From: Candidatus Thorarchaeota archaeon | GTDB taxonomy: Archaea > Asgardarchaeota > Thorarchaeia > Thorarchaeales > Thorarchaeaceae | Direction of reading: 5' to 3' | NCBI GenBank assembly: GCA_020348985.1 | Contig: CP070761.1 | Coordinates: 2,355,102-2,419,101 of the forward strand | Length of the DNA: 64,000 bases | Shown: positions 36,795 to 56,429 of the stretch, one piece after another | Position numbering within the stretch: position 1 is the first letter of the stretch | Layout: the number at the start of each line of letters is the position of its first letter | The notes under the pieces: generated by a model | Told to the model about the DNA's origin: nothing | The model's input: only the letters and a program-made list of their open reading frames with translations | The model's database searches: none | Made by a program: the position numbers and the translations under genes

Positions 36795-37346
36795 GTGAAG
36801 CTGGTTGATCTGAGCCGGGAACTAATTAGAGTACTGAAGGAGACTTACCCGGCAGGCAAGCGCAGTGATGTCATTGCCAAAGATCTAGGCGTGCCCAAGC
36901 GAAGGGTGTACGATGTCATTGCAGTATTGAAATCCCTCGACATGGTAAGAACCAGTCGAAGGTACGATGGTACAACCGTTACCTGGATTGACCGCTCAGA
37001 GGATTTTGTAAGTCGAGCTGATTATGACGCAATAAGAATGAATCTTGATGAGGTCAATGTAGCCAGAAAGGACTTGCAGGTCCAGGTAGCGGAGCTCAAA
37101 GAATCCCTCCGCGTAACCAAGACCAAGCTTCGGACAGATGTGCCAACTGTTGAGGCATCCGATCGTATGGTATTTCACACGACTCAGCTTCGAATTAGAC
37201 CACTCTCCTCCAACGGGATAAAGCGAGTTCGCGACTCAGGAATGGAAGTGCTAGTTGAGACTAACGAGGCCGGAATGCTTGTCGATCCTGCAGAGACTGA
37301 ATCGGATGAAAAAGAGTCTCTCATCAAGAGCCTTCAACGAGTCTAG
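36795..37346 (+). CDS. E2F/DP-like winged-helix transcription factor with coiled coil
   Basis: KRRVYDV..VL recognition helix, downstream W, heptad coiled coil; TrmB-type HTH is the alternative reading. Confidence 0.65.
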   Translation: MKLVDLSRELIRVLKETYPAGKRSDVIAKDLGVPKRRVYDVIAVLKSLDMVRTSRRYDGTTVTWIDRSEDFVSRADYDAIRMNLDEVNVARKDLQVQVAELKESLRVTKTKLRTDVPTVEASDRMVFHTTQLRIRPLSSNGIKRVRDSGMEVLVETNEAGMLVDPAETESDEKESLIKSLQRV

Positions 37347-38269: not shown

Positions 38270-39448
38270 TTGGCTACGAGCAAAGCAGACTGTTGGAGCG
38301 GACAAGGACTGGATACCTCGAACCTTGATGTGGCATTTGTCATTGACACTACCGGCTCGATGCGCGATGACATTGATGCTGTGAGAGACAGTTTGTTTGA
38401 GATTGTTGACACGATAACAAGAAGAACCGAAGACCTCGCTATTCGTTTTGGGCTCGTATCATATCGGGACCATCCGCCTCAGGACAAAAGCTATGTTACG
38501 AAGGTCTATGACTTCACGTTCGACATCAAGAAGATCCACAAGCAGATATCCAGATTGAAGCCGTCTGAGGGCGGAGACATCCCAGAGGCTGTAGCTGATG
38601 GGATCTATGATGCGCGCACGAAGCTTTCATGGTCAGATAGCTCCTACAAAGTACTGGTCCTCATGGGGGATGCACCACCGCATGGACGAGAATACAACAA
38701 CCTTACCGACGACTACTTTCCAGATGGCTGTCCAATGGGTCATGATCCAAAGGAAGAGATGCAGGCTCTCAAGGGCATGTTCGGCAGCACGGTATTCGTC
38801 TTTGTGTGCGGCTGCAATCCACTAGTTGAGGACTCATTTCGTTCTATAGCAGAATCAGTGGATGATGGACGCTACTATAGTCTTCACGAGGCCGATCTTA
38901 TTCCAAGAGCCATCCTTCAGATTCTTGAAGATGTTGGAGATCTTATCGAGGCGGACCGAAGAGTCCTCGCTCACTACGAGAGTCATGATGGATCGTTTAG
39001 CCTGCCTGAGGCAGCATCTGAGTTGGACCTGGAACTACGTGATCTAAAGACCTCCTTATCACGTCTACTCGAATTGGGTCACATTCCGAGGTGGCCCAGA
39101 GGCCGGCCGTTGTCACCATCTCAAATGGGACTGATCGTTCAGCTGGGCAAAGTACCCGACGCCCTGTTAGCAGGACGTCCATTCAAGTATCGGTTGAAAG
39201 TGCGAAATCCAAGTTCTGCAGTGATTGGGATTAGGCTTGTTGTATCGCTCATCACTGATGAAGGGGTTTCTGAGGTAACGAATGAACCTCATGAAATAGG
39301 TCCTCGCGCCGACCAGTATCTTGATCTTGAGTTGGTGCCTATGACTGAGGTTGAAGGTAAAGCAACTCTGCGAGTCGAAGTGTTCTATGGCTCGACTTCA
39401 ATTGCCAGTGGTGCACATAAAGTACGCCTCTATTTGCAACAGGGTTAG
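38270..39448 (+). CDS. vWA domain protein with wHTH and C-terminal Ig-like domain
   Basis: MIDAS DTTGSM, YRDHPP, GGD.PE, GDAPPHG; HTH FSLPEAASEL...LSRLLELG; beta-rich tail. Confidence 0.85.
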   Translation: MATSKADCWSGQGLDTSNLDVAFVIDTTGSMRDDIDAVRDSLFEIVDTITRRTEDLAIRFGLVSYRDHPPQDKSYVTKVYDFTFDIKKIHKQISRLKPSEGGDIPEAVADGIYDARTKLSWSDSSYKVLVLMGDAPPHGREYNNLTDDYFPDGCPMGHDPKEEMQALKGMFGSTVFVFVCGCNPLVEDSFRSIAESVDDGRYYSLHEADLIPRAILQILEDVGDLIEADRRVLAHYESHDGSFSLPEAASELDLELRDLKTSLSRLLELGHIPRWPRGRPLSPSQMGLIVQLGKVPDALLAGRPFKYRLKVRNPSSAVIGIRLVVSLITDEGVSEVTNEPHEIGPRADQYLDLELVPMTEVEGKATLRVEVFYGSTSIASGAHKVRLYLQQG

Positions 39449-39481: not shown

Positions 39482-42118
39482 TCAGGATGTAATATCCTTA
39501 ATCGATGAAAGAAGATAGCTCTCGAACAGACTTGCCGAGAATAGCTCTATTGGGACCACTCGTGTATTGGTCAATTCAAGAGTATCAAAGAGTCTCTCGG
39601 CATCACTGTCTGATTCAAATCCGATGAAATCAAGTCGAATGGCGTCGGTCCTTCTGATGGATCTCAAGAACGGTCGAAGATTCTCTTCCTCTTCATCTGG
39701 TGCAGTTGTTATTACGATTGCGAGAGTTGGTTTCTCTTCGCCAAAGTCCTCCACAAGCTCTGCGATTGTCCTGAGAGCTTCGCTCATCTTTCCTCCTGAG
39801 GAGGTCTCTTCAGCAATGTCCATAGTGAAGAAGACCAACGACTGAAGCACCTCTTCAGACTGCATGTCTTCCTCGAATTCCAGGTGTGTTTGAATCTCAT
39901 GTCCTCTCTGAATTGTGAACTTTGTCGCCTTGTCTCCGATTGAGACTACGGCTAGCCGACCACCTGAACGGTTTACCGACAAACTCTGGATTGCCACCAA
40001 CGACATGATTGTGGCCAATTCCTGCCTCGTTATCATGTCGCCTAGATTGTTGAGAAACTCATCTACTCCATGTACTCTACTGATCAGAGATGAGAGCATG
40101 TGTCTCAGATAGAATGGAGTCTTCAGAGGAACGTCTCTGTGTTGCATCCCCTCACTATGGATGATTGCCAGAATGAGGTTGAATTCCTTGAAGGACTCCG
40201 CTGGCCATATTGACATCCCATCAACAGAAAGCTTGGCGATACGTCCAGGATCTAGTTGTGGAGATGACTTGACCAGCGTCAACGAGATCATATGACTGTC
40301 TCTTCCTATCCATACTTTGGCTCCCTTCCCCACCAACCGTCCGTCCAGTCTTCTCTGAATGTCTTCTTCGTTCATTCTGAGATATGAATACGTTTCTCCA
40401 GAAGCAGAAGGCGCAGACTCTTCGAATGCAAACATCGCATTACTGATTTCATCTGCCTTGCCAGTGATTCTTACCAAGTCAACGGTTGTCGGATCCCTCA
40501 GACCTATCAGATCCGCATCATCACGAGAAATCGCAACTTTCTTCGGGGGACACCAAGACGCGACCTCCATCTTGCCGACTCCCCAGTTATTGGTTCCAGG
40601 CTCAAGGGCAACTACAATGTCTCCTCCTGAGGCCCCTATAGCACGCATATCCTCTTCACAAAGCATAAACACTCCTGGCTCCGTGTCTCTGAAGACTACG
40701 CCGAAAGTAAGGGACGACACTACTTCGTTCAGGTAGCTTACTTGCAGGCACTTAAGTAGCTCATAGTGAAAGCGACTTAGATGCGCAGGTGAAGTCAGAA
40801 TTGGGCCCTCAGACTTCGTTGAAGCACGGACCAGAGTATTGTGGATTCCAACGCTTCTTGAACGCAGATTCTCTGAGAATGAAGACCTCCATCCAGCAAC
40901 TCTCAAGGTGTCGTCACGTTCAATCAGGAGTGCCAAACTCATTGCTGAAGGAGAGGAAGGATCCTTTACAGTTAGAACATAGCTATTCAGATCGACACGA
41001 CCGCCGTTCTCAGAGATCATGTTGTCAATGGAGACAATCCCATGAAGGCGCTGTGTTGCCATAATCTCAAGTATACGGGAGAGTTCGTCCATTGAGGTCT
41101 TCCCCAATCTACCCTCAGCAACAACTGACATACAGTTTTCAACATAGTCTAGAAACGGTGGCCTGGGGGGTAGCAAAGCAAGAACATTTCCGCCGAGTAT
41201 CCGTTGAATATCTTCAGCCTTAGCTGAAACGTTCCTGCTCAGGAGCAGGCTTAGTAGCTCAGGAATGCTATCTCCAGTTTGGGTTTCCGGGTATCCACTC
41301 GAAAACACGAGCCGTGTAGACCAATCTGTTCCGCGTCCGTTTTCTCTCAGATAGGTCACAATGGTTGACAATGAAGATACTGTTGCCCCAGCGGTTGTAA
41401 TCCTGATATTCGGAAGATCAAGGAGTCTTGTTATGTCATGCCCCCATGCTCTATGACGACCAGCAGACACGATGATGCCAGGAGCTTGGTGTCCCATCTG
41501 CCTCAAAGAGATTGACCATTTGAGCAGTGAATCCAAGTCTTCTGGTCCCTTGAGATTGATAAAGACTGGAAGGTTTGAACGGATGTACATCTCCAAAGAA
41601 TCGCCATTCGGCCCTTGGAATGCACTATCCAAATCAGTTGCATTCAGTAGACAGGTCCATCCGCTTCGAGTCGTCCTACCAAGTCTCATGTCTTGGGAGT
41701 AGTAGAGTCTTGGACCGTAGGGTGGCGTAGTACACCACCGATGCACGAGTTCTGTGTTCTTTTCCTGCTGTGTAGGAGGAAGTTTTGTGTTGCCTACCGA
41801 GACCAAGGGGTGCACCAAGAAGAAGTCTGCCAACCAGCTGTTACTTGAAGCGTCCAATACATTCTGATATAGACTCCCAATTACTGGAGGCTGTTTGAGA
41901 TATTCGTAGGCCTTTCTTGGCAGAAACTTGAATGCAGCAGAGTATTTTGTGGAGAAGTCATGAAGTCGGCTTTCCAACATTCCGAAATAGGAAAGAACGC
42001 GGGGCGGATCGAACGTTCGTATTAACGAGCCTATCTGAACCAGGCCAAGACTAACGGATGCATCTATGACAACGAAGCGTTTTAGCTCGCTCGCTTCAGT
42101 GTCTTCAACAACCAGCAT
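39482..42118 (-). CDS. Fusion of degenerate amidohydrolase + CDC48-N-like + degenerate vWA domains
   Basis: Collinear similarity to both 42287-43777 and 43845-45137; start set at MLVV by analogy (track start 42160). Confidence 0.8.
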   Translation of the reverse strand: MLVVEDTEASELKRFVVIDASVSLGLVQIGSLIRTFDPPRVLSYFGMLESRLHDFSTKYSAAFKFLPRKAYEYLKQPPVIGSLYQNVLDASSNSWLADFFLVHPLVSVGNTKLPPTQQEKNTELVHRWCTTPPYGPRLYYSQDMRLGRTTRSGWTCLLNATDLDSAFQGPNGDSLEMYIRSNLPVFINLKGPEDLDSLLKWSISLRQMGHQAPGIIVSAGRHRAWGHDITRLLDLPNIRITTAGATVSSLSTIVTYLRENGRGTDWSTRLVFSSGYPETQTGDSIPELLSLLLSRNVSAKAEDIQRILGGNVLALLPPRPPFLDYVENCMSVVAEGRLGKTSMDELSRILEIMATQRLHGIVSIDNMISENGGRVDLNSYVLTVKDPSSPSAMSLALLIERDDTLRVAGWRSSFSENLRSRSVGIHNTLVRASTKSEGPILTSPAHLSRFHYELLKCLQVSYLNEVVSSLTFGVVFRDTEPGVFMLCEEDMRAIGASGGDIVVALEPGTNNWGVGKMEVASWCPPKKVAISRDDADLIGLRDPTTVDLVRITGKADEISNAMFAFEESAPSASGETYSYLRMNEEDIQRRLDGRLVGKGAKVWIGRDSHMISLTLVKSSPQLDPGRIAKLSVDGMSIWPAESFKEFNLILAIIHSEGMQHRDVPLKTPFYLRHMLSSLISRVHGVDEFLNNLGDMITRQELATIMSLVAIQSLSVNRSGGRLAVVSIGDKATKFTIQRGHEIQTHLEFEEDMQSEEVLQSLVFFTMDIAEETSSGGKMSEALRTIAELVEDFGEEKPTLAIVITTAPDEEEENLRPFLRSIRRTDAIRLDFIGFESDSDAERLFDTLELTNTRVVPIELFSASLFESYLLSSIKDITS

Positions 42119-42286
42119 CTGGAATGACTCCGTTACACCCCAGTAGAATAAGTTACCCATATCAGGATTTGTGCGGGATGTGTGCTAATTCCTGGGACGC
42201 GTGCGGCGGACAACCGTGAATAGAAGTTCCTCACATGATTTATCTCCGATTAGGTTACTGAATCGCGATATAGGAGCAAATGCGTA

Positions 42287-43777
42287 ATGCTTGTGGTCCG
42301 GGCTGTCGACGACATTCCTGAGTCAGGCATAAAAGCTGACTCAGAGTTCAAGATATATCTCGTAGACGCCCACCACCACATGGGACGAGAGAAAGGACAT
42401 CGGAACACACCCTCTGGGGCGTACGACTTCTATGCGATGCTATGGCTCGAGATTCAAAAGATGGCCAGTGCAATGCTGGAAGATGACGAGCTAGCTTTTG
42501 AGCCTGTTGGAGTTGTCCCACCTGACTTCGCATCTCGCTTCTTCTCAGCGCGAGAGAGCTGGGAGCAAATGAACCACGGCTGGCTCGTTGACAGAACGGT
42601 AGTCTTCCCATATAGCGACGACTACTCGAAAGCAGGTCCGGAAGATCGAGCAAGCTTCTCTCTGTCAAACGAAAGAATATCTGGATGGAGTACGCGTGCG
42701 CCGCATTCTACACGTCTTATAGGATTCTGCAGAGTCGATCCACATGATTCCAAAAAGACTCCACACATGGCGATCAACGAACTGAATCGATCAGTGAATA
42801 CGCTTGGACTTAGAGGTCTGAAACTGCATCCTCTTGCACAGCTATTCCTAGACGAAATCGAAGACGAAATCACTGTCGGACTTGTGCGTAGAGCAAGTGA
42901 TCTAGGGGTCACAGTGATTTTTGACACCAGAAGCATGCGCACAGTCGACAAAATCGCCAACATCATTGAGCGAATCGAAGGTTCTAGCAAGAAAAAACGC
43001 AACAAGCCTAAGGTTGTGTTGGCACACTGCGGAATGAGTCCGGGTGATCCTCAACTTCACGAAGTGTTAAGCAATCCTTCAGTTTATGGTGAGATTTCAT
43101 CCTTACACGGTCGCGACCTGCCGCTTCTGTTCGAGTCGGCAAGTGAGATGATAGCCCAGGAGGGAGTTCACTGGTCAGAGAAGATTCTCTTCGGTACTGA
43201 CTACAGCTTTCTGTCATTCCAGGCCGCAGAGGCTATTCTCTTCCTCCTTTCAAGAGACTTTCCGGGGTCCCTTGAAGATGTGAGACGAATTCTCGGTCTG
43301 AACAGCCTGAAGTTGACCCAGACGCCTTTCTACACAAACCGCGCTACTGACCGAAGACCCGTCCTGGTCAGTCTTCCTGATCCGACTTCAACGGATTTCA
43401 ATAGACTGCTAGAAATCGTAGTATCTCTTGCATCATCAGATATGTGGGAAATCCGTTCAACGGATCTCCTGCACGTCCCCGGTGAATCCTCGGAAGTTCG
43501 GGCTGGTGGTAAAGACAAAGGGTCAGAGACCAAGTCCTACGTTATTGCATTGCAGTCAAAATCGAACGATGAAGAGATTCACATCTGGGTTAGGCACGAT
43601 AGTGACAAAGTACTGTCGTTTGCTTTGCTGGAGTCTGTTCCTCTGCACTCGACCCTCCTGGCTGATGGATGGGGGTTGGACCTTGACGCCAAGCTTCTTA
43701 GAGCTCACGCAAAGTACTCTGAGGTTTTGAAAGACTTTGATGAGTTCACTCGAAGATTGTCAAAGACTCTCGTCTAG
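42287..43777 (+). CDS. Amidohydrolase_2 family metallo-hydrolase with C-terminal extension
   Basis: DAHHH, GLKLHP, LAHCG, ILFGTDY, ILGLN. Confidence 0.85.
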   Translation: MLVVRAVDDIPESGIKADSEFKIYLVDAHHHMGREKGHRNTPSGAYDFYAMLWLEIQKMASAMLEDDELAFEPVGVVPPDFASRFFSARESWEQMNHGWLVDRTVVFPYSDDYSKAGPEDRASFSLSNERISGWSTRAPHSTRLIGFCRVDPHDSKKTPHMAINELNRSVNTLGLRGLKLHPLAQLFLDEIEDEITVGLVRRASDLGVTVIFDTRSMRTVDKIANIIERIEGSSKKKRNKPKVVLAHCGMSPGDPQLHEVLSNPSVYGEISSLHGRDLPLLFESASEMIAQEGVHWSEKILFGTDYSFLSFQAAEAILFLLSRDFPGSLEDVRRILGLNSLKLTQTPFYTNRATDRRPVLVSLPDPTSTDFNRLLEIVVSLASSDMWEIRSTDLLHVPGESSEVRAGGKDKGSETKSYVIALQSKSNDEEIHIWVRHDSDKVLSFALLESVPLHSTLLADGWGLDLDAKLLRAHAKYSEVLKDFDEFTRRLSKTLV

Positions 43778-43844
43778 GCATGAGCCAGCAATTCTTTAAA
43801 ACCAGATGATGAGAGTTTGCCCGAGCATGTCCTCGGAGGGACAT

Positions 43845-45137
43845 ATGATTAGTCGGACGCAGAAGCTAGAGATAATAGATGGAGGCGACATGAGAGGTTT
43901 CGCTTCCCTCAATCCGAAAACAACCGAAGTCCTAGACGCAGAGATTGGCTCGATTGTCGTGTTTCAAGAACCGCAAAGCAGCTTCTGGGGCGCGGCGGAA
44001 GTCCGCAAGAGCAAGGATGTTGATGAGGACAAGATTGTCGTTGATACATTGGTCTTGGAAGCATCATTGTTGATGGAGGGTGACATTGTTGAAGTAACCC
44101 TGTATGAAGAGGACATGATCGCTCTAGAGTTCGTTGATTTCGGCCTGAAACCACTCACGGAAGAAGCAAACAGAGATGACCTAGTTGCTTTGGCGGCGGA
44201 GAGAATCGAGTCCCTGGAGAAACTCATTGATGGTCGCCTCGTATATCCAGGGATGTCTTTCAACTGGCCCGAATTGGATGTCAAGGTCGAGATTCTTGAT
44301 ACTCGCCCCTCGCTCACAGGGATGAGCTTCGCCAAGCTGGCATTTGAAGCCCTGCGAGAGAAGACTGGCTATCAATTCAAGACTGTTGGCATTGCCACTC
44401 CCTTCAATGCGATACTCTGCATAGACGTATCCGGTTCGATGAAGACAATCGATGTGCCAGTGCGTGACATTGCTCACGCTCGCGAAGGACTAAAGGACCT
44501 GGCTGGCGACAATCCTGAAGTCGAGGCATTTCTAGATCGATTTGAAGAAGGGAAGAACGTTAGCAGAGCTGAGGCGGCAGCAATGGCTGTTCTGCTGTAT
44601 CTGGCTGAGAAGGTAGGTCGAGGTTATGGCGAGAAGGTGGCTGTCTTAACTTTCGAAAAAGATGTCACACAGATGACATTCATGGATTCCGACAGTGGGG
44701 AGCTGAGGCCTTACGTAGAATGCACTGGCAGAGAGAAATCCCTTGGCCTTCAGATCGTAAGCACACATGTAGTTGACAAGGTCGAAGAAGGTGGAACTCT
44801 GACTGACATGGGGTCCGCAATTCGAAAGGCGAGCGATGTCATAGACGAATTCGGAGACAAGGACAAACCCACGATGCTCGTGCTTCTAACCGACGGGATG
44901 ACAACGTCAGGCCCGCCTCCGCTCAAAGTACTCAAAGAGAGAATTCACGACCGAGGGATGTTGGTCATATACTGCATAGGTCTCGGTGAGAGAAGTGAGA
45001 TTGATGAAGAGCTAATGCTGGCAATCGCACAATTCGGCAATGGTACATACCGTCATGTTGACAACATGAGAGATCTGCTTGAATGGTACGGTCGCTTGGC
45101 AGGAGAATTCGCTGTCGTAATTCGCGGTGCAGAATAG
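43845..45137 (+). CDS. CDC48/Ufd1-N-like double-psi-barrel + vWA domain protein
   Basis: N-terminal LNPKT...GSIV...IVVD...EGDIVEV pattern; MIDAS DVSGSM, TDMG, LTDG, IGLG. Confidence 0.8.
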   Translation: MISRTQKLEIIDGGDMRGFASLNPKTTEVLDAEIGSIVVFQEPQSSFWGAAEVRKSKDVDEDKIVVDTLVLEASLLMEGDIVEVTLYEEDMIALEFVDFGLKPLTEEANRDDLVALAAERIESLEKLIDGRLVYPGMSFNWPELDVKVEILDTRPSLTGMSFAKLAFEALREKTGYQFKTVGIATPFNAILCIDVSGSMKTIDVPVRDIAHAREGLKDLAGDNPEVEAFLDRFEEGKNVSRAEAAAMAVLLYLAEKVGRGYGEKVAVLTFEKDVTQMTFMDSDSGELRPYVECTGREKSLGLQIVSTHVVDKVEEGGTLTDMGSAIRKASDVIDEFGDKDKPTMLVLLTDGMTTSGPPPLKVLKERIHDRGMLVIYCIGLGERSEIDEELMLAIAQFGNGTYRHVDNMRDLLEWYGRLAGEFAVVIRGAE

Positions 45138-45144
45138 ATGCGGC

Positions 45145-46365
45145 CTACATGGGCTCGAGGGCCTCAGATAGACCCTTCAAAGTCTCCATATCCATCTCGT
45201 CGATAGTCTCTTCCGGAATTCCATCAACCATATCCTTAGGCATGGCAATGAGGACTTTGGCTTTCTCAAGACCGTATTTCTCGATGAACTCTGCGAATCT
45301 CTTATCGTCGGTCTTTGGTTGTTCTAGCTCCTTCTTTCTACGTCGTTTCTTGGAAGGCTCCTCTTCTGTCGGTTCGGCTGGAGCTGCTTCAACATCAGGG
45401 GTTGATGCTATCAGTGCTTCGAGCTCATCCCTACTAAGGTTTGCCAATACTTCTTCGCCGACTGAACCTCTTACTTCAGAGGGTATCTTCTCAATCAGTT
45501 CATCGCGAGAGATCGCCTTCTTCTTGACTCGCTTGACTTTCCTGACCTTTACTTTCTTCTTCTTCTTTGCGGGCTCAGGTTCGGCCTCAGCAAACGATGC
45601 CTTGAGTTCTTCGACCAGTTCTGTTGCTCGAGTTGGTGTCAATCGCCTAATATCTTCTGGAGGAAGTGACATTCTAATGTCGTCTGGAAGCTCGCTAAGA
45701 ATCTCTTCAACTTCAGCCGATATCCCTAAATCAGTCACGGCTGTACGTGGCACGGCAATGTCGGCCACCGGAAGGTCCGCAATCATTTCCTCGCCTTCGG
45801 GCAGGATTATGGGTTTGCCTTCAAGTTCCTGAATCAATAGTGTGTCGTCGATTTCGATTTCGAACTTCGCATTATGCCACTTGACGAACCTATCAATTGC
45901 ATCAGGTGCAAGCTCCAGCTTGCTGAGATAGGTCCTGATGCTGTCTTCGGTCATGTCAGACAAGCCTGAGAGAATCCTGTCAATGTCTTCTGAGGGCACC
46001 CTTGCCCAAATCGGCCCGCGAAGTAGCTTGGACAGTCCGAATGCACAATGAGACCTGACCCACGTGTTTTTGTCTTTGAGCCCTTGAAGCATGTAGGGTA
46101 TCGTCTTTGGCTGCTGATACCAAGCGATTGCTTGAGCAGCCGCAATGCGAACATTGTCGTCTTCGTCTTGTAGAGAGGTCAAAAGGTCATCAATCACAGT
46201 AGGGTCGGCGAGATCTATTGCTGCTAATATCGCCCTCTCTCTAACAATCTCTGATGTGTCAGAGAATGCTTTGATGAGTGCATTTCTGTTCTTGGAAGAT
46301 TCCTTTGCCAGACGTGCTACTTGTTCGGTTTCATAGTCCAGTAGCAACCGCCTCGTTTCTGACAA
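45145..46365 (-). CDS. HEAT/PBS-lyase repeat protein with charged repetitive C-terminus
   Basis: D....VRERA, D.D.NVRIAAAQAI, DKNTWVRSHCAFGL repeats. Confidence 0.85.
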   Translation of the reverse strand: MSETRRLLLDYETEQVARLAKESSKNRNALIKAFSDTSEIVRERAILAAIDLADPTVIDDLLTSLQDEDDNVRIAAAQAIAWYQQPKTIPYMLQGLKDKNTWVRSHCAFGLSKLLRGPIWARVPSEDIDRILSGLSDMTEDSIRTYLSKLELAPDAIDRFVKWHNAKFEIEIDDTLLIQELEGKPIILPEGEEMIADLPVADIAVPRTAVTDLGISAEVEEILSELPDDIRMSLPPEDIRRLTPTRATELVEELKASFAEAEPEPAKKKKKVKVRKVKRVKKKAISRDELIEKIPSEVRGSVGEEVLANLSRDELEALIASTPDVEAAPAEPTEEEPSKKRRRKKELEQPKTDDKRFAEFIEKYGLEKAKVLIAMPKDMVDGIPEETIDEMDMETLKGLSEALEPM

Positions 46366-50031: not shown

Positions 50032-51348
50032 ATGAGCTCTGAGAGCCAGCTCTGGCCCTTTCTACTGTTTCTTCCAAGGAGTTTTGAAGATCGACAAGAT
50101 TTCATCAAGTCGGTCTTGAGTTCAAGAGTGGCAGCAAGCGTGCTTTCTAGTTTCGATGAGACTGGTCGGGTCTACCAGAGGGATCTCGTTGAGGAGTTGA
50201 GCCACTCAAACAAGAGCATAATCGCCTACCTTAGGAGCCTGAATGATTACGGTCTAGTTGAAAGTGGTTCTACTGTTCGCGGAGGCAAGCGTGTCGTCTT
50301 TCACGAGCTTACCAGAAGTGGCTGGGGTCTTGCTCGATTCTTCTCGGAAGGTTTACCGTATGACCTTGGTGAGCTTACATCATTCCTTTTGGAAGACTAT
50401 CTAACACACCTTATAGCTCTCTATCGGGTCGAGAAGATGCCGGACGAAGTAATCTTCGACATCTTCACTCGGACTCGCGCAAAAGCCGTTCTTGAGGGCT
50501 CTCAGACATACGAAAGGCCTGACTTCATTTTGTTCGGTGCATCAGCATATCTTACGACGATTCAGTGTGAACAGATTCCAGCTCCGGGGTCCATTCTCTC
50601 TTGTTCTTCTCCAACCAGATCTCCTGGTGGCCCAACTGTCGACCTGGCGGCGACCTTGGCAGAAGACGGATTCCGAATATCATTCGTTTCATCAGTTGGT
50701 AATGACCAAGATGGTTGGAGAGTCATATCCGATCTCATAGGAAAAGGGGTCGATGTCTCGGACATAGTGATTGAGAATGACAAAACGACGAACGAGACTT
50801 TCGTTGTCGTTGACAAGAAAGGTGAGCGGACAATGGTTGGAATTGGAGACTCTACGTCTCTTTCGATAATCTCTCCTTCACAGGTTCCATGGGCAAAGGT
50901 AGGAAACGCGTCCGTCATCTACATCGGCGAAGTATTCATTGAGGTTGCCATCTCTATCGCTGCGTATGCACAGTCAAGAAACATCCCTGTTGTTTACCGG
51001 TGTTCGGTACCATACCTAGAGCTCGGTCTCGATAGGATAGAGCCAATTCTCAAGCAAGTTGATATTCTTGTCCTCTCCAATCGGGCGTGGCAGTATCTGC
51101 AGCAAAGTCATGGACCTAAAGCAATCGAGAAGCTCCAGGGCATCACCGAAGCGTCTATTCTGATAAAGAAGAAGAAATCGTACAGCGTCAGAACGAAGGC
51201 GAAGCGGCCGAAAACACTCCAGTGTCAGAAGTCAACTGACGACATTTCCAGCGAGTTCATGGCTGGTCTTCTAAATGGTATGAAGAACGGTCTTTTGCTG
51301 GAGAATGCAGTTCAGGTGGGCATCAGCCTGGAACTTGAAAGGGAATGA
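50032..51348 (+). CDS. wHTH + PfkB/ribokinase-like domain protein (putative regulator)
   Basis: N-terminal wHTH (YQRDLVEEL..SNKSII.YL..L...GLV); PfkB motifs SPGG, VGND.DG, GERTMV; GAGD motif absent. Confidence 0.8.
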   Translation: MSSESQLWPFLLFLPRSFEDRQDFIKSVLSSRVAASVLSSFDETGRVYQRDLVEELSHSNKSIIAYLRSLNDYGLVESGSTVRGGKRVVFHELTRSGWGLARFFSEGLPYDLGELTSFLLEDYLTHLIALYRVEKMPDEVIFDIFTRTRAKAVLEGSQTYERPDFILFGASAYLTTIQCEQIPAPGSILSCSSPTRSPGGPTVDLAATLAEDGFRISFVSSVGNDQDGWRVISDLIGKGVDVSDIVIENDKTTNETFVVVDKKGERTMVGIGDSTSLSIISPSQVPWAKVGNASVIYIGEVFIEVAISIAAYAQSRNIPVVYRCSVPYLELGLDRIEPILKQVDILVLSNRAWQYLQQSHGPKAIEKLQGITEASILIKKKKSYSVRTKAKRPKTLQCQKSTDDISSEFMAGLLNGMKNGLLLENAVQVGISLELERE

Positions 51349-55982: not shown

Positions 55983-56429
55983 CTAGTGGTCAGCCACTAA
56001 CTCGAATACATCCTTGATCTTCTCACTCAGTTCCCTGAGTCTGTACCAGCTGGATTCACGAGCTTCTCCCCTGGAGAGCCGCGCGACCATCTGGTCGTAG
56101 TCTGCTACGATGACATCTCGAAGAACTGAGATTGCTTTCTCATCATTGAAGTGTGAATCATTCACACGTCCGTCCTCAAGTCGCTTGGCCAGAGGTGCCA
56201 AGGCTTTCTCTGCTGAGTCTATGGATATGAGCGCTGACCTGAACTTCTCTTTTGGTTCTCTCATCGCATAGCCTCCCACCAATGGCGACATTCCTGCGCC
56301 GAGTGACCCTCTGCCTATGTCATCCAAAGCTTCCATTGCATCCTGCATATGATCATATGTGTCTGAAAGGACCTTCTTGATCGCTTTGAGAATTCGAGGC
56401 CTGTCAGACTCTTCTGTCATCCGAGTCAC
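55983..56429 (-). CDS. Hypothetical helical protein, co-transcribed with the GCS2 fusion
   Basis: GGAG RBS, 17-bp gap to the next gene. Confidence 0.7.
   Translation of the reverse strand: MTRMTEESDRPRILKAIKKVLSDTYDHMQDAMEALDDIGRGSLGAGMSPLVGGYAMREPKEKFRSALISIDSAEKALAPLAKRLEDGRVNDSHFNDEKAISVLRDVIVADYDQMVARLSRGEARESSWYRLRELSEKIKDVFELVADH

Follow-up and report, generated by a model that had tools for sequence, protein, structure and literature searches.

Why should a genome keep, head to head with two genes whose metal-binding sites are complete, one long gene that copies both of them and has lost those sites? The question is raised by a stretch of 64,000 nucleotides (the window) from a Thorarchaeota genome (Asgard archaea; a single contig of 3.16 Mb), in which an 878-residue reading frame on the minus strand (39482–42118; the fusion) is divided by a 168 bp intergenic region of divergent transcription (42119–42286) from two genes on the plus strand: AH (42287–43777), a live amidohydrolase of 496 residues, and N-vWA (43806–45137), a live adaptor of 443 residues in which a Cdc48-N-like domain precedes a vWA domain. 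A first-pass annotation by a model had placed these open reading frames correctly and had read the fusion as a collinear, inactivated paralogue of both neighbours. The analysis described here identifies the fusion as an ancient single-chain pseudo-enzyme copy of the hydrolase, together with its C-terminal domain, and of the Cdc48N–vWA adaptor; it is kept by purifying selection and can stand without the live genes.

The fusion and its two neighbours

BLASTP relates the fusion to AH with an E value of 2e-5 over 93 residues and to N-vWA with an E value of 4e-13 over 321 residues. When alignments of the three families (31 fusions, 15 AH and 15 N-vWA) were compared using hhalign, residues 1–408 of the fusion matched residues 1–446 of AH, including its C-terminal domain (E 4.7e-31, probability 99.9), and residues 454–860 matched residues 2–421 of N-vWA (E 1.2e-31, probability 99.9). 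The two matches follow one another in the same order as the neighbouring genes, which bears out the collinearity that the first-pass annotation had deduced from pairs of short motifs, all of which are present in the translations. The open frame of the fusion extends to 42160 on the minus strand, where an ATG would add 14 residues; the true start is probably M15 at 42118, judging from the orthologues and from the database copy P0004 (878 residues), all of which begin there.

Four regions can be recognized in the fusion, the AF2 model of which has a mean pLDDT of 85.9. Residues ∼1–335 (41114–42118, minus strand) correspond to an amidohydrolase-like TIM barrel, with residues 16–318 superposing on 3cjp (VIA; Z = 16.7, r.m.s.d. 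of 3.1, 219 residues aligned). Residues ∼336–470 (40709–41113, minus strand) form an α/β middle domain that hhalign identifies as homologous to the C-terminal domain of AH and for which a fold search of the Atlas returned no clear or usable match. A Cdc48-N-like domain follows at residues ∼471–640 (40199–40708, minus strand), assigned from the hhalign match to N-vWA, from an N-domain profile that matches the fusions at ∼466–636 and from Foldseek matches to the N domains of p97 and 55LCC. The chain ends in a vWA fold at residues ∼641–878 (39485–40198, minus strand), with residues 644–878 superposing on 4fx5 (VIA; Z = 17.6, r.m.s.d. of 2.5, 179 residues aligned).

The chemistry of both halves has gone. 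In a joint alignment of 32 fusions from four Asgard families, 15 live AH and 15 live N-vWA, residues D27, H29, H31, H181, H247 and D305 of AH are kept in 15/15 live orthologues, as are the MIDAS (metal-ion-dependent adhesion site) residues D207, S209, S211, T333 and D363 of N-vWA in 15/15. The catalytic ligands (HxH, His, His and Asp) are replaced in 32/32 fusions, in which the equivalent of D27 is the sole survivor, and a complete MIDAS, judged from its alignment columns, occurs in 0/32, so that the loss of metal ligands and MIDAS first noticed in one protein extends to the whole set. The fusion has no match in Pfam (E ≤ 1) or NCBIfam, and its N-terminal half is related to Amidohydro_2 only by hhalign and fold; this half is a relative by descent and not an enzyme. 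As an enzyme homologue without its catalytic residues and under purifying selection, the fusion qualifies as a pseudo-enzyme in the operational sense. Loss of chemistry with retention of domains and folds is a common fate of pseudo-enzymes.

Age and retention of the fusion

A profile of the fusion matched 70 of the 76 genomes of the same family, mostly over its full length and without stops, and also found it in one further genome of the same order and in families f7 and f19. Frames of ∼880 codons without stops are present in most of the 70 genomes, at 30–77% identity, with stop codons or contig ends interrupting some matches (for example in genomes G161, G136 and G164). Against the 77%-identical relative, dN/dS is 0.07–0.10 for the fusion, 0.10–0.12 for AH and about 0.01 for N-vWA, all of which are rough values owing to saturation of dS.

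These data dispose of the reading of the fusion as a decaying pseudogene or an annotation artefact. It could draw on the want of any Pfam or NCBIfam match and on the loss of all catalytic residues; stop-free frames of ∼880 codons in most of 70 genomes, a dN/dS of 0.07–0.10 and a confidently modelled fold (pLDDT of 85.9) have already refuted it, and we give it next to no credence.

In a maximum-likelihood tree of the barrel domain, a single branch with support of 99/99 splits the live from the dead copies, and families f1, f2, f7 and f19 are found on both sides, with the dead copies of f7 and f19 on long branches. A single duplication that predates the split of these four families is implied. 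Pseudo-enzymes as such are common; what is unusual is one chain that copies an enzyme gene and the neighbouring gene of its adaptor, had shed all of its chemistry by the time the four Asgard families separated and is still retained.

The live pair and its predicted complex

AH scores 42.1 bits against the Pfam family Amidohydro_2 (PF04909; cut-off of 26.4, E 1.2e-10) and carries the ligand pattern of HxH on strand 1, two further histidines and the aspartate on strand 8, in columns that are invariant. Its TIM barrel spans residues ∼1–345 and its C-terminal domain residues 346–496. N-vWA, with its Cdc48-N-like domain at ∼17–195 and its vWA domain at ∼196–443, probably starts at M14 (43845). It scores 34.4 bits against the Pfam family VWA_2 (cut-off of 27) and its AF2 model has a pLDDT of 82.8; the vWA domain is canonical (VIA match to 4fx5; Z = 21.4, r.m.s.d. 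of 2.1, 183 residues aligned), with the MIDAS pattern DxSxS…T…D intact.

The first-pass annotation had taken the fusion as Rosetta-stone evidence that AH and N-vWA act together, and three further lines of evidence agree with it. The two genes are adjacent in five Asgard families, they are missing together in three genomes, and their complex is predicted with an ipSAE, which is the model's own confidence and not a measurement, of 0.78 (median of three runs), compared with 0.00 for the best of three controls. In calibration, 58 of 80 solved complexes came up to this ipSAE mark, as did two of 110 mismatched pairs; these counts apply only roughly here because own alignments were used. The runs share at least 77% of their contacts and the pLDDT of the partners is at least 78. 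To our knowledge, no complex of this kind has been solved.

In the predicted complex, AH contributes residues 33–34, 183–188, 215–219, 247–253, 272–280 and 308–314, located beside H31, H181, H247 and D305 in the loops that follow the ligand-bearing strands of the barrel, i.e. on its catalytic face. Both domains of N-vWA contribute to the interface and none of its MIDAS residues does. Although inferred from modelling, a heterodimer of AH and N-vWA in which the adaptor lies over the active site and leaves the MIDAS free is thus supported.

Two candidates for a live fused form were rejected. Open frames of 965 residues in some relatives proved to be AH and N-vWA in the same frame with a TAG between them, and P0050 (903 residues), although it matches N-vWA, carries additional N-type barrels together with a linker rich in proline and contains no hydrolase. 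As a side observation, AH and N-vWA occupy one frame interrupted by a single TAG in genomes G008 (locus L020, 10077–10079), G012, G014, G023 and G024, giving open frames of ∼950–980 residues, whereas in this window the two genes use different frames; the arrangement is probably due to chance rather than to read-through.

A ligase and the live module

The live pair is part of a gene module with an ATP-dependent carboxylate-amine ligase of the GCS2/YbdK type, to which the Thorarchaeota version adds a second vWA protein, VWAup. The ligase (P0052; 52534–55965, minus strand; 1143 residues, with a ligase domain at ∼1–480 and a tail of ∼660 residues) lies in the same window, 7 kb from the live pair. 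The assignment of its N-terminal domain as GCS2/YbdK-like is putative: it scores 20.3 bits against Pfam GCS2, below the cut-off of 21, and matches YbdK (PDB code 1r8g) with an E value of 2e-5 over 36 residues. VWAup (38270–39448, plus strand; 392 residues; Pfam VWA_4/VWA) has the MIDAS-like motif DTTGS and is a conserved neighbour by synteny.

Elsewhere the ligase adjoins the pair directly. In f6 and f7, the large reading frames that abut AH and N-vWA show 29–30% identity to the whole of P0052 (E 3e-113 and 4e-122), and the one in f19 shows 29% identity (E 4.6e-115); full-length ligase orthologues abut the pair in genomes G029, G030 and G060, and in f9 a shorter ligase is placed directly upstream of AH. 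Among 300 Asgard genomes, the ligase is present in f1 (65/76), f2, f6, f7, f9 (61/68), f19, f22, f24, f27 and f28 and was not found in f3, f4, f5 (0/28), f12 (0/19) or f14 (0/11); a profile of N-vWA and the fusion has matches in the same Asgard families as the ligase and none in f3, f4, f5, f12 and f14. In 35 genomes of the Thorarchaeota family that were compared, ligase and fusion share a contig and are no more than ∼13 kb apart, in most cases 9–13 kb, with shorter distances in G006 (6.8 kb) and G010 (3.6 kb) and with G243, in which the two are far apart, as an exception.

A literature search retrieved no paper that links Asgard archaea to a carboxylate-amine ligase, to vWA together with amidohydrolase, or to Cdc48 together with von Willebrand, and the module of ligase, hydrolase and adaptor is apparently undescribed. 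The literature therefore agrees with the first-pass annotation in knowing of no described system of this make-up; what that annotation overlooked was the third core partner, the ligase, in the same window. No RNA set is among the sequencing runs listed as containing the locus; all of these are DNA from sediment or soil metagenomes.

Separability of the fusion and the live genes

Three genomes bear on whether the dead copy needs the live genes. G001 (of the same genus, 98% complete), G017 (95%) and G006 (97%) keep an intact fusion, and no orthologues of AH, N-vWA or VWAup were found in them. The ligase was not found in G001 or G017; in G006 it is represented by a divergent homologue of 708 residues (33% identity) at the syntenic site (locus L037, 4014–6140). 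The only relatives of VWAup are paralogues of ∼40% identity in G001 and G017, with no match in G006. The contigs are continuous and collinear with the window, with the gene for a HEAT-repeat protein (in the window at 45145–46365, minus strand; 406 residues; Pfam HEAT_2; a conserved neighbour) followed on the same strand, after 102–127 bp, by the fusion, and in G001 a gap of 220 bp occupies the place where the ligase would sit. Conversely, live genes are present in families f6 and f9, in neither of which a full-length fusion was detected. Genera g12 and g14 are without the fusion, the live pair and the ligase, and genome G013 keeps the HEAT gene in the absence of the fusion. AH, N-vWA, VWAup and the ligase thus behave as a single unit, absent as a whole; the fusion can do without them, and the HEAT protein is tied tightly to neither; the case of G013 also weakens the HEAT protein as a candidate obligate partner of the fusion.

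Since the fusion is intact where the live genes were not found, association with the live pair is not obligatory for the dead copy. This result bears on the pseudo-symmetric complex proposed in the first-pass annotation, in which the fusion would pair, as a scaffold or a regulatory subunit, with the heterodimer of live AH and N-vWA. Much about the locus invites such a view: the head-to-head layout with its shared control region of 168 bp is conserved in most genomes of the family (a search of this region in the window for repeats that might form an operator found none) and the fusion retains all four domains of the pair. A dimer of a live and a dead barrel is plausible, as Amidohydro_2 enzymes of the ACMSD type are typically dimers, and Rpn8 with Rpn11 is a comparable case. 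A further precedent is ChlD, an ATPase-inactive AAA+ paralogue of ChlI that is fused to a vWA domain and binds ChlI (PMC6604950). However, the two parts are separable in both directions, the fusion being intact in G001, G006 and G017 without a detectable live pair, and f6 and f9 having the live pair and ligase without a detectable full-length fusion. A complex of live and dead copies is possible as a facultative association that the data do not require and that the fusion-only genomes weaken; as the role of the fusion we regard it as rather doubtful.

Alternatively, the fusion might act as a substrate-trapping decoy or reader: it would bind the mark made by the ligase, or the ligand, that the live pair recognizes, would be unable to hydrolyse it and so would protect or sense the modified target. 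Retention of the domain set and folds with loss of the chemistry alone is what such a protein would be expected to display, but the fusion is present in G001 and G017, two genomes in which the ligase was not found, which would leave no mark to read, and the MIDAS, the expected ligand site of the vWA half, has also been lost. We consider a decoy or reader improbable.

Folds of the adaptor

In Foldseek searches, the N domain of N-vWA resembles that of p97 (TMt of 0.70–0.76, r.m.s.d. of 3.6–4.1 over ∼183 columns). The Pfam CDC48_N model has no match in N-vWA; a broader N-domain profile (A6) aligns its positions 10–84 with residues 44–117 of yeast Cdc48 (E 1e-6) and also matches designed double-psi barrels (E 2.5e-7). 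In both fold and sequence, then, the domain is like the solved N domains of Cdc48/p97.

For the N-vWA model as a whole, the top seven Foldseek matches are chains of DEPDC5 (E 1.7e-14 to 2.4e-11 over 419–479 columns), which rank above p97 N-D1, and yeast Iml1 is also among the matches. According to a review, the N-terminal domain (NTD) of DEPDC5 resembles the N domain of Sec18/NSF, and its SABA domain the trunk of Sec23 (PMC8534245). By sequence the relationship is much less distinct: the DEPDC5 NTD (residues 37–123) is retrieved by the N-domain profile at an E value of 2e-3, at best level with NSF and behind Cdc48. Identification of N-vWA as DEPDC5 by sequence was rejected. The Pfam model IML1 (PF12257) has no match in N-vWA nor, at E ≤ 10, anywhere in the genome; the best match to NPR2 in the genome has an E value of 0.15 and lies away from the locus; the N-domain profile gave 92 matches among 1.84 billion proteins, none of them longer than 932 residues; and the Atlas yields only clusters of vWA and AAA ATPase proteins. 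The one Asgard paper found to mention DEPDC5, in a survey for GATOR1 parts, gives NPRL2-like proteins only. The two-domain layout shared by N-vWA and the N-terminal half of DEPDC5/Iml1 is real, the sequence link is weak and common descent is not shown.

Proposed mechanism

Taken as a whole, the locus is best explained, in our view with somewhat better than even prospects, by a dead ancient fusion that mirrors the AH/N-vWA heterodimer, by an amide cycle run by the ligase and the hydrolase, and by a fusion that now acts independently as a binder or scaffold. The order of domains in the fusion would mirror a real heterodimer of the live neighbours, in the predicted form of which both adaptor domains grip the hydrolase barrel on its catalytic face and the MIDAS is left free for a third partner. 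The ligase would make an amide bond, of the γ-glutamyl type or an isopeptide, and the hydrolase would remove or process this bond on a substrate chosen by the adaptor. The fusion itself would have an independent role, as a noncatalytic protein for binding or scaffolding, and would not be an obligate subunit of the live enzyme complex, given that it survives in genomes in which the live genes were not found.

Several points weigh against this explanation. In this and most other genomes of the Thorarchaeota family the ligase is 7–13 kb from the pair with unrelated genes between them, so that the linkage may partly be plain synteny of the family. The three fusion-only genomes are draft assemblies and not finished genomes, and in most Thorarchaeota genomes the fusion and the live pair are retained in their head-to-head arrangement, which still fits a facultative association of live and dead copies. 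The solved amidohydrolases closest to the barrel, 3nur and 3cjp, are both uncharacterized. The complex carries the model's own score, and its predicted interface residues do not exceed the remaining residues in conservation (p = 0.13–0.23).

What is new here is the joint absence of the live genes and their separability from the fusion, the tree of live and dead copies, the location assigned to the predicted interface and a sequence-based placement for the N domain. The fusion is a natural Rosetta stone for the predicted AH/N-vWA complex, and the module is widespread in the Asgard archaea, which among archaea are the closest to eukaryotes. Biochemical work on it might uncover a new pathway of amide-bond tagging or γ-glutamylation.

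Neighbouring genes

VWAup abuts the fusion in this window, and ∼180 of its residues follow the vWA domain without a match in Pfam; by eye, the end of this C-terminal region looks β-rich and recalls the ligase tail, for which the ∼660 residues were putatively read as Ig-like β-sandwich repeats in the first, sequence-only inspection. Several relatives have two extra genes between VWAup and the fusion (L015, 2030–3220 and 3198–4466; also L016, L017, L018, L026 and L027), one encoding an N-vWA-like paralogue of ∼390 residues and the other a protein of ∼420 residues with a possible coiled-coil tail and weak CorA/HSBP1 matches; neither is present in this window. In its C-terminal half the HEAT protein looks disordered, with tracts rich in Lys and Arg and repeated acidic-hydrophobic motifs.

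Upstream of the ligase, an open reading frame of 148 residues (55983–56429) is retained in relatives, even those without the ligase. A gene at 36795–37346 (plus strand) encodes a 183-residue protein with a winged-helix domain of the E2F/DP type (Pfam, E 1.1e-8) and adjoins a cyclophilin-like gene; both are syntenic in relatives. The winged helix-turn-helix PfkB gene at 50032–51348 was considered as a member of the module and rejected, as it was not found in the module-bearing genera g2, g4, g5, g7, g9, g10, g11 and g13.

Comparison with known systems

The enzymes of the Amidohydrolase_2 family (PF04909), mononuclear metal TIM-barrel enzymes of the ACMSD/LigW type, share their profile and ligand pattern with AH and their barrel fold with the N-terminal half of the fusion. 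AH differs from them in an extra C-terminal domain of 150 residues and, according to the predicted complex, appears to be capped by its adaptor, whereas the half in the fusion is without any ligands and matches no Pfam model.

A precedent for an amidohydrolase tied to a carboxylate-amine ligase, as in the live module, is provided by FluG and by SCO6961–SCO6962, in which a TIM-barrel amidohydrolase is fused or adjacent to an ATP-dependent carboxylate-amine ligase and a γ-glutamylated intermediate is thought to be handled (PMC6478659). The FluG ligase resembles glutamine synthetase I, whereas that of the module is GCS2/YbdK-like with a long C-terminal tail, and FluG has neither a vWA or Cdc48-N adaptor nor a dead copy. 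Pupylation offers an analogy only. PafA and Dop, which form and remove an isopeptide tag, are linked in evolution to carboxylate-amine ligases (PMC3511204); the eraser in the present case would be an Amidohydro_2 protein and not a paralogue of the ligase. No Pup-like tag gene was identified here and a protein substrate is not implied by the present data.

For the fusion, a parallel is offered by ChlD/BchD of magnesium chelatase, a paralogue of the neighbouring enzyme subunit that is catalytically silent, carries a fused vWA (integrin I) domain and serves as a bridging or regulatory subunit (PMC6604950). It is, however, an AAA+ paralogue with a working MIDAS, whereas here the dead part is an amidohydrolase and the fused vWA domain has lost its MIDAS; the fusion, moreover, copies two separate live genes whole.

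The N domains of Cdc48, p97 and VAT share both fold and sequence with that of N-vWA, in which it is followed by a vWA domain and not by an AAA+ ATPase. With the N-terminal half of DEPDC5/Iml1 (Sea1), of GATOR1/SEACIT, N-vWA shares the layout of an NSF/Cdc48-N-like NTD followed by a vWA-like SABA domain, and it is the only noneukaryotic family in this analysis to do so. Unlike DEPDC5/Iml1, N-vWA ends after the vWA domain, at 443 residues, without the SHEN, DEP and C-terminal domains; its vWA domain is a canonical one with a MIDAS, and its neighbours are a hydrolase and a ligase rather than longin proteins. It is conceivable, although we rate it as very unlikely, that ligase, hydrolase and adaptor represent an Asgard writer, eraser and adaptor for a reversible amide mark (isopeptide or γ-glutamyl) on proteins and that the Cdc48N–vWA protein is the prokaryotic forerunner of the NTD–SABA scaffold of DEPDC5/Iml1 in GATOR1. 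Were this so, the fused copy without metal sites would show the same drift from an enzyme-linked adaptor to a pure scaffold as DEPDC5. Work on the biochemistry of the module would also test for an archaeal root of part of the GATOR1 scaffold.

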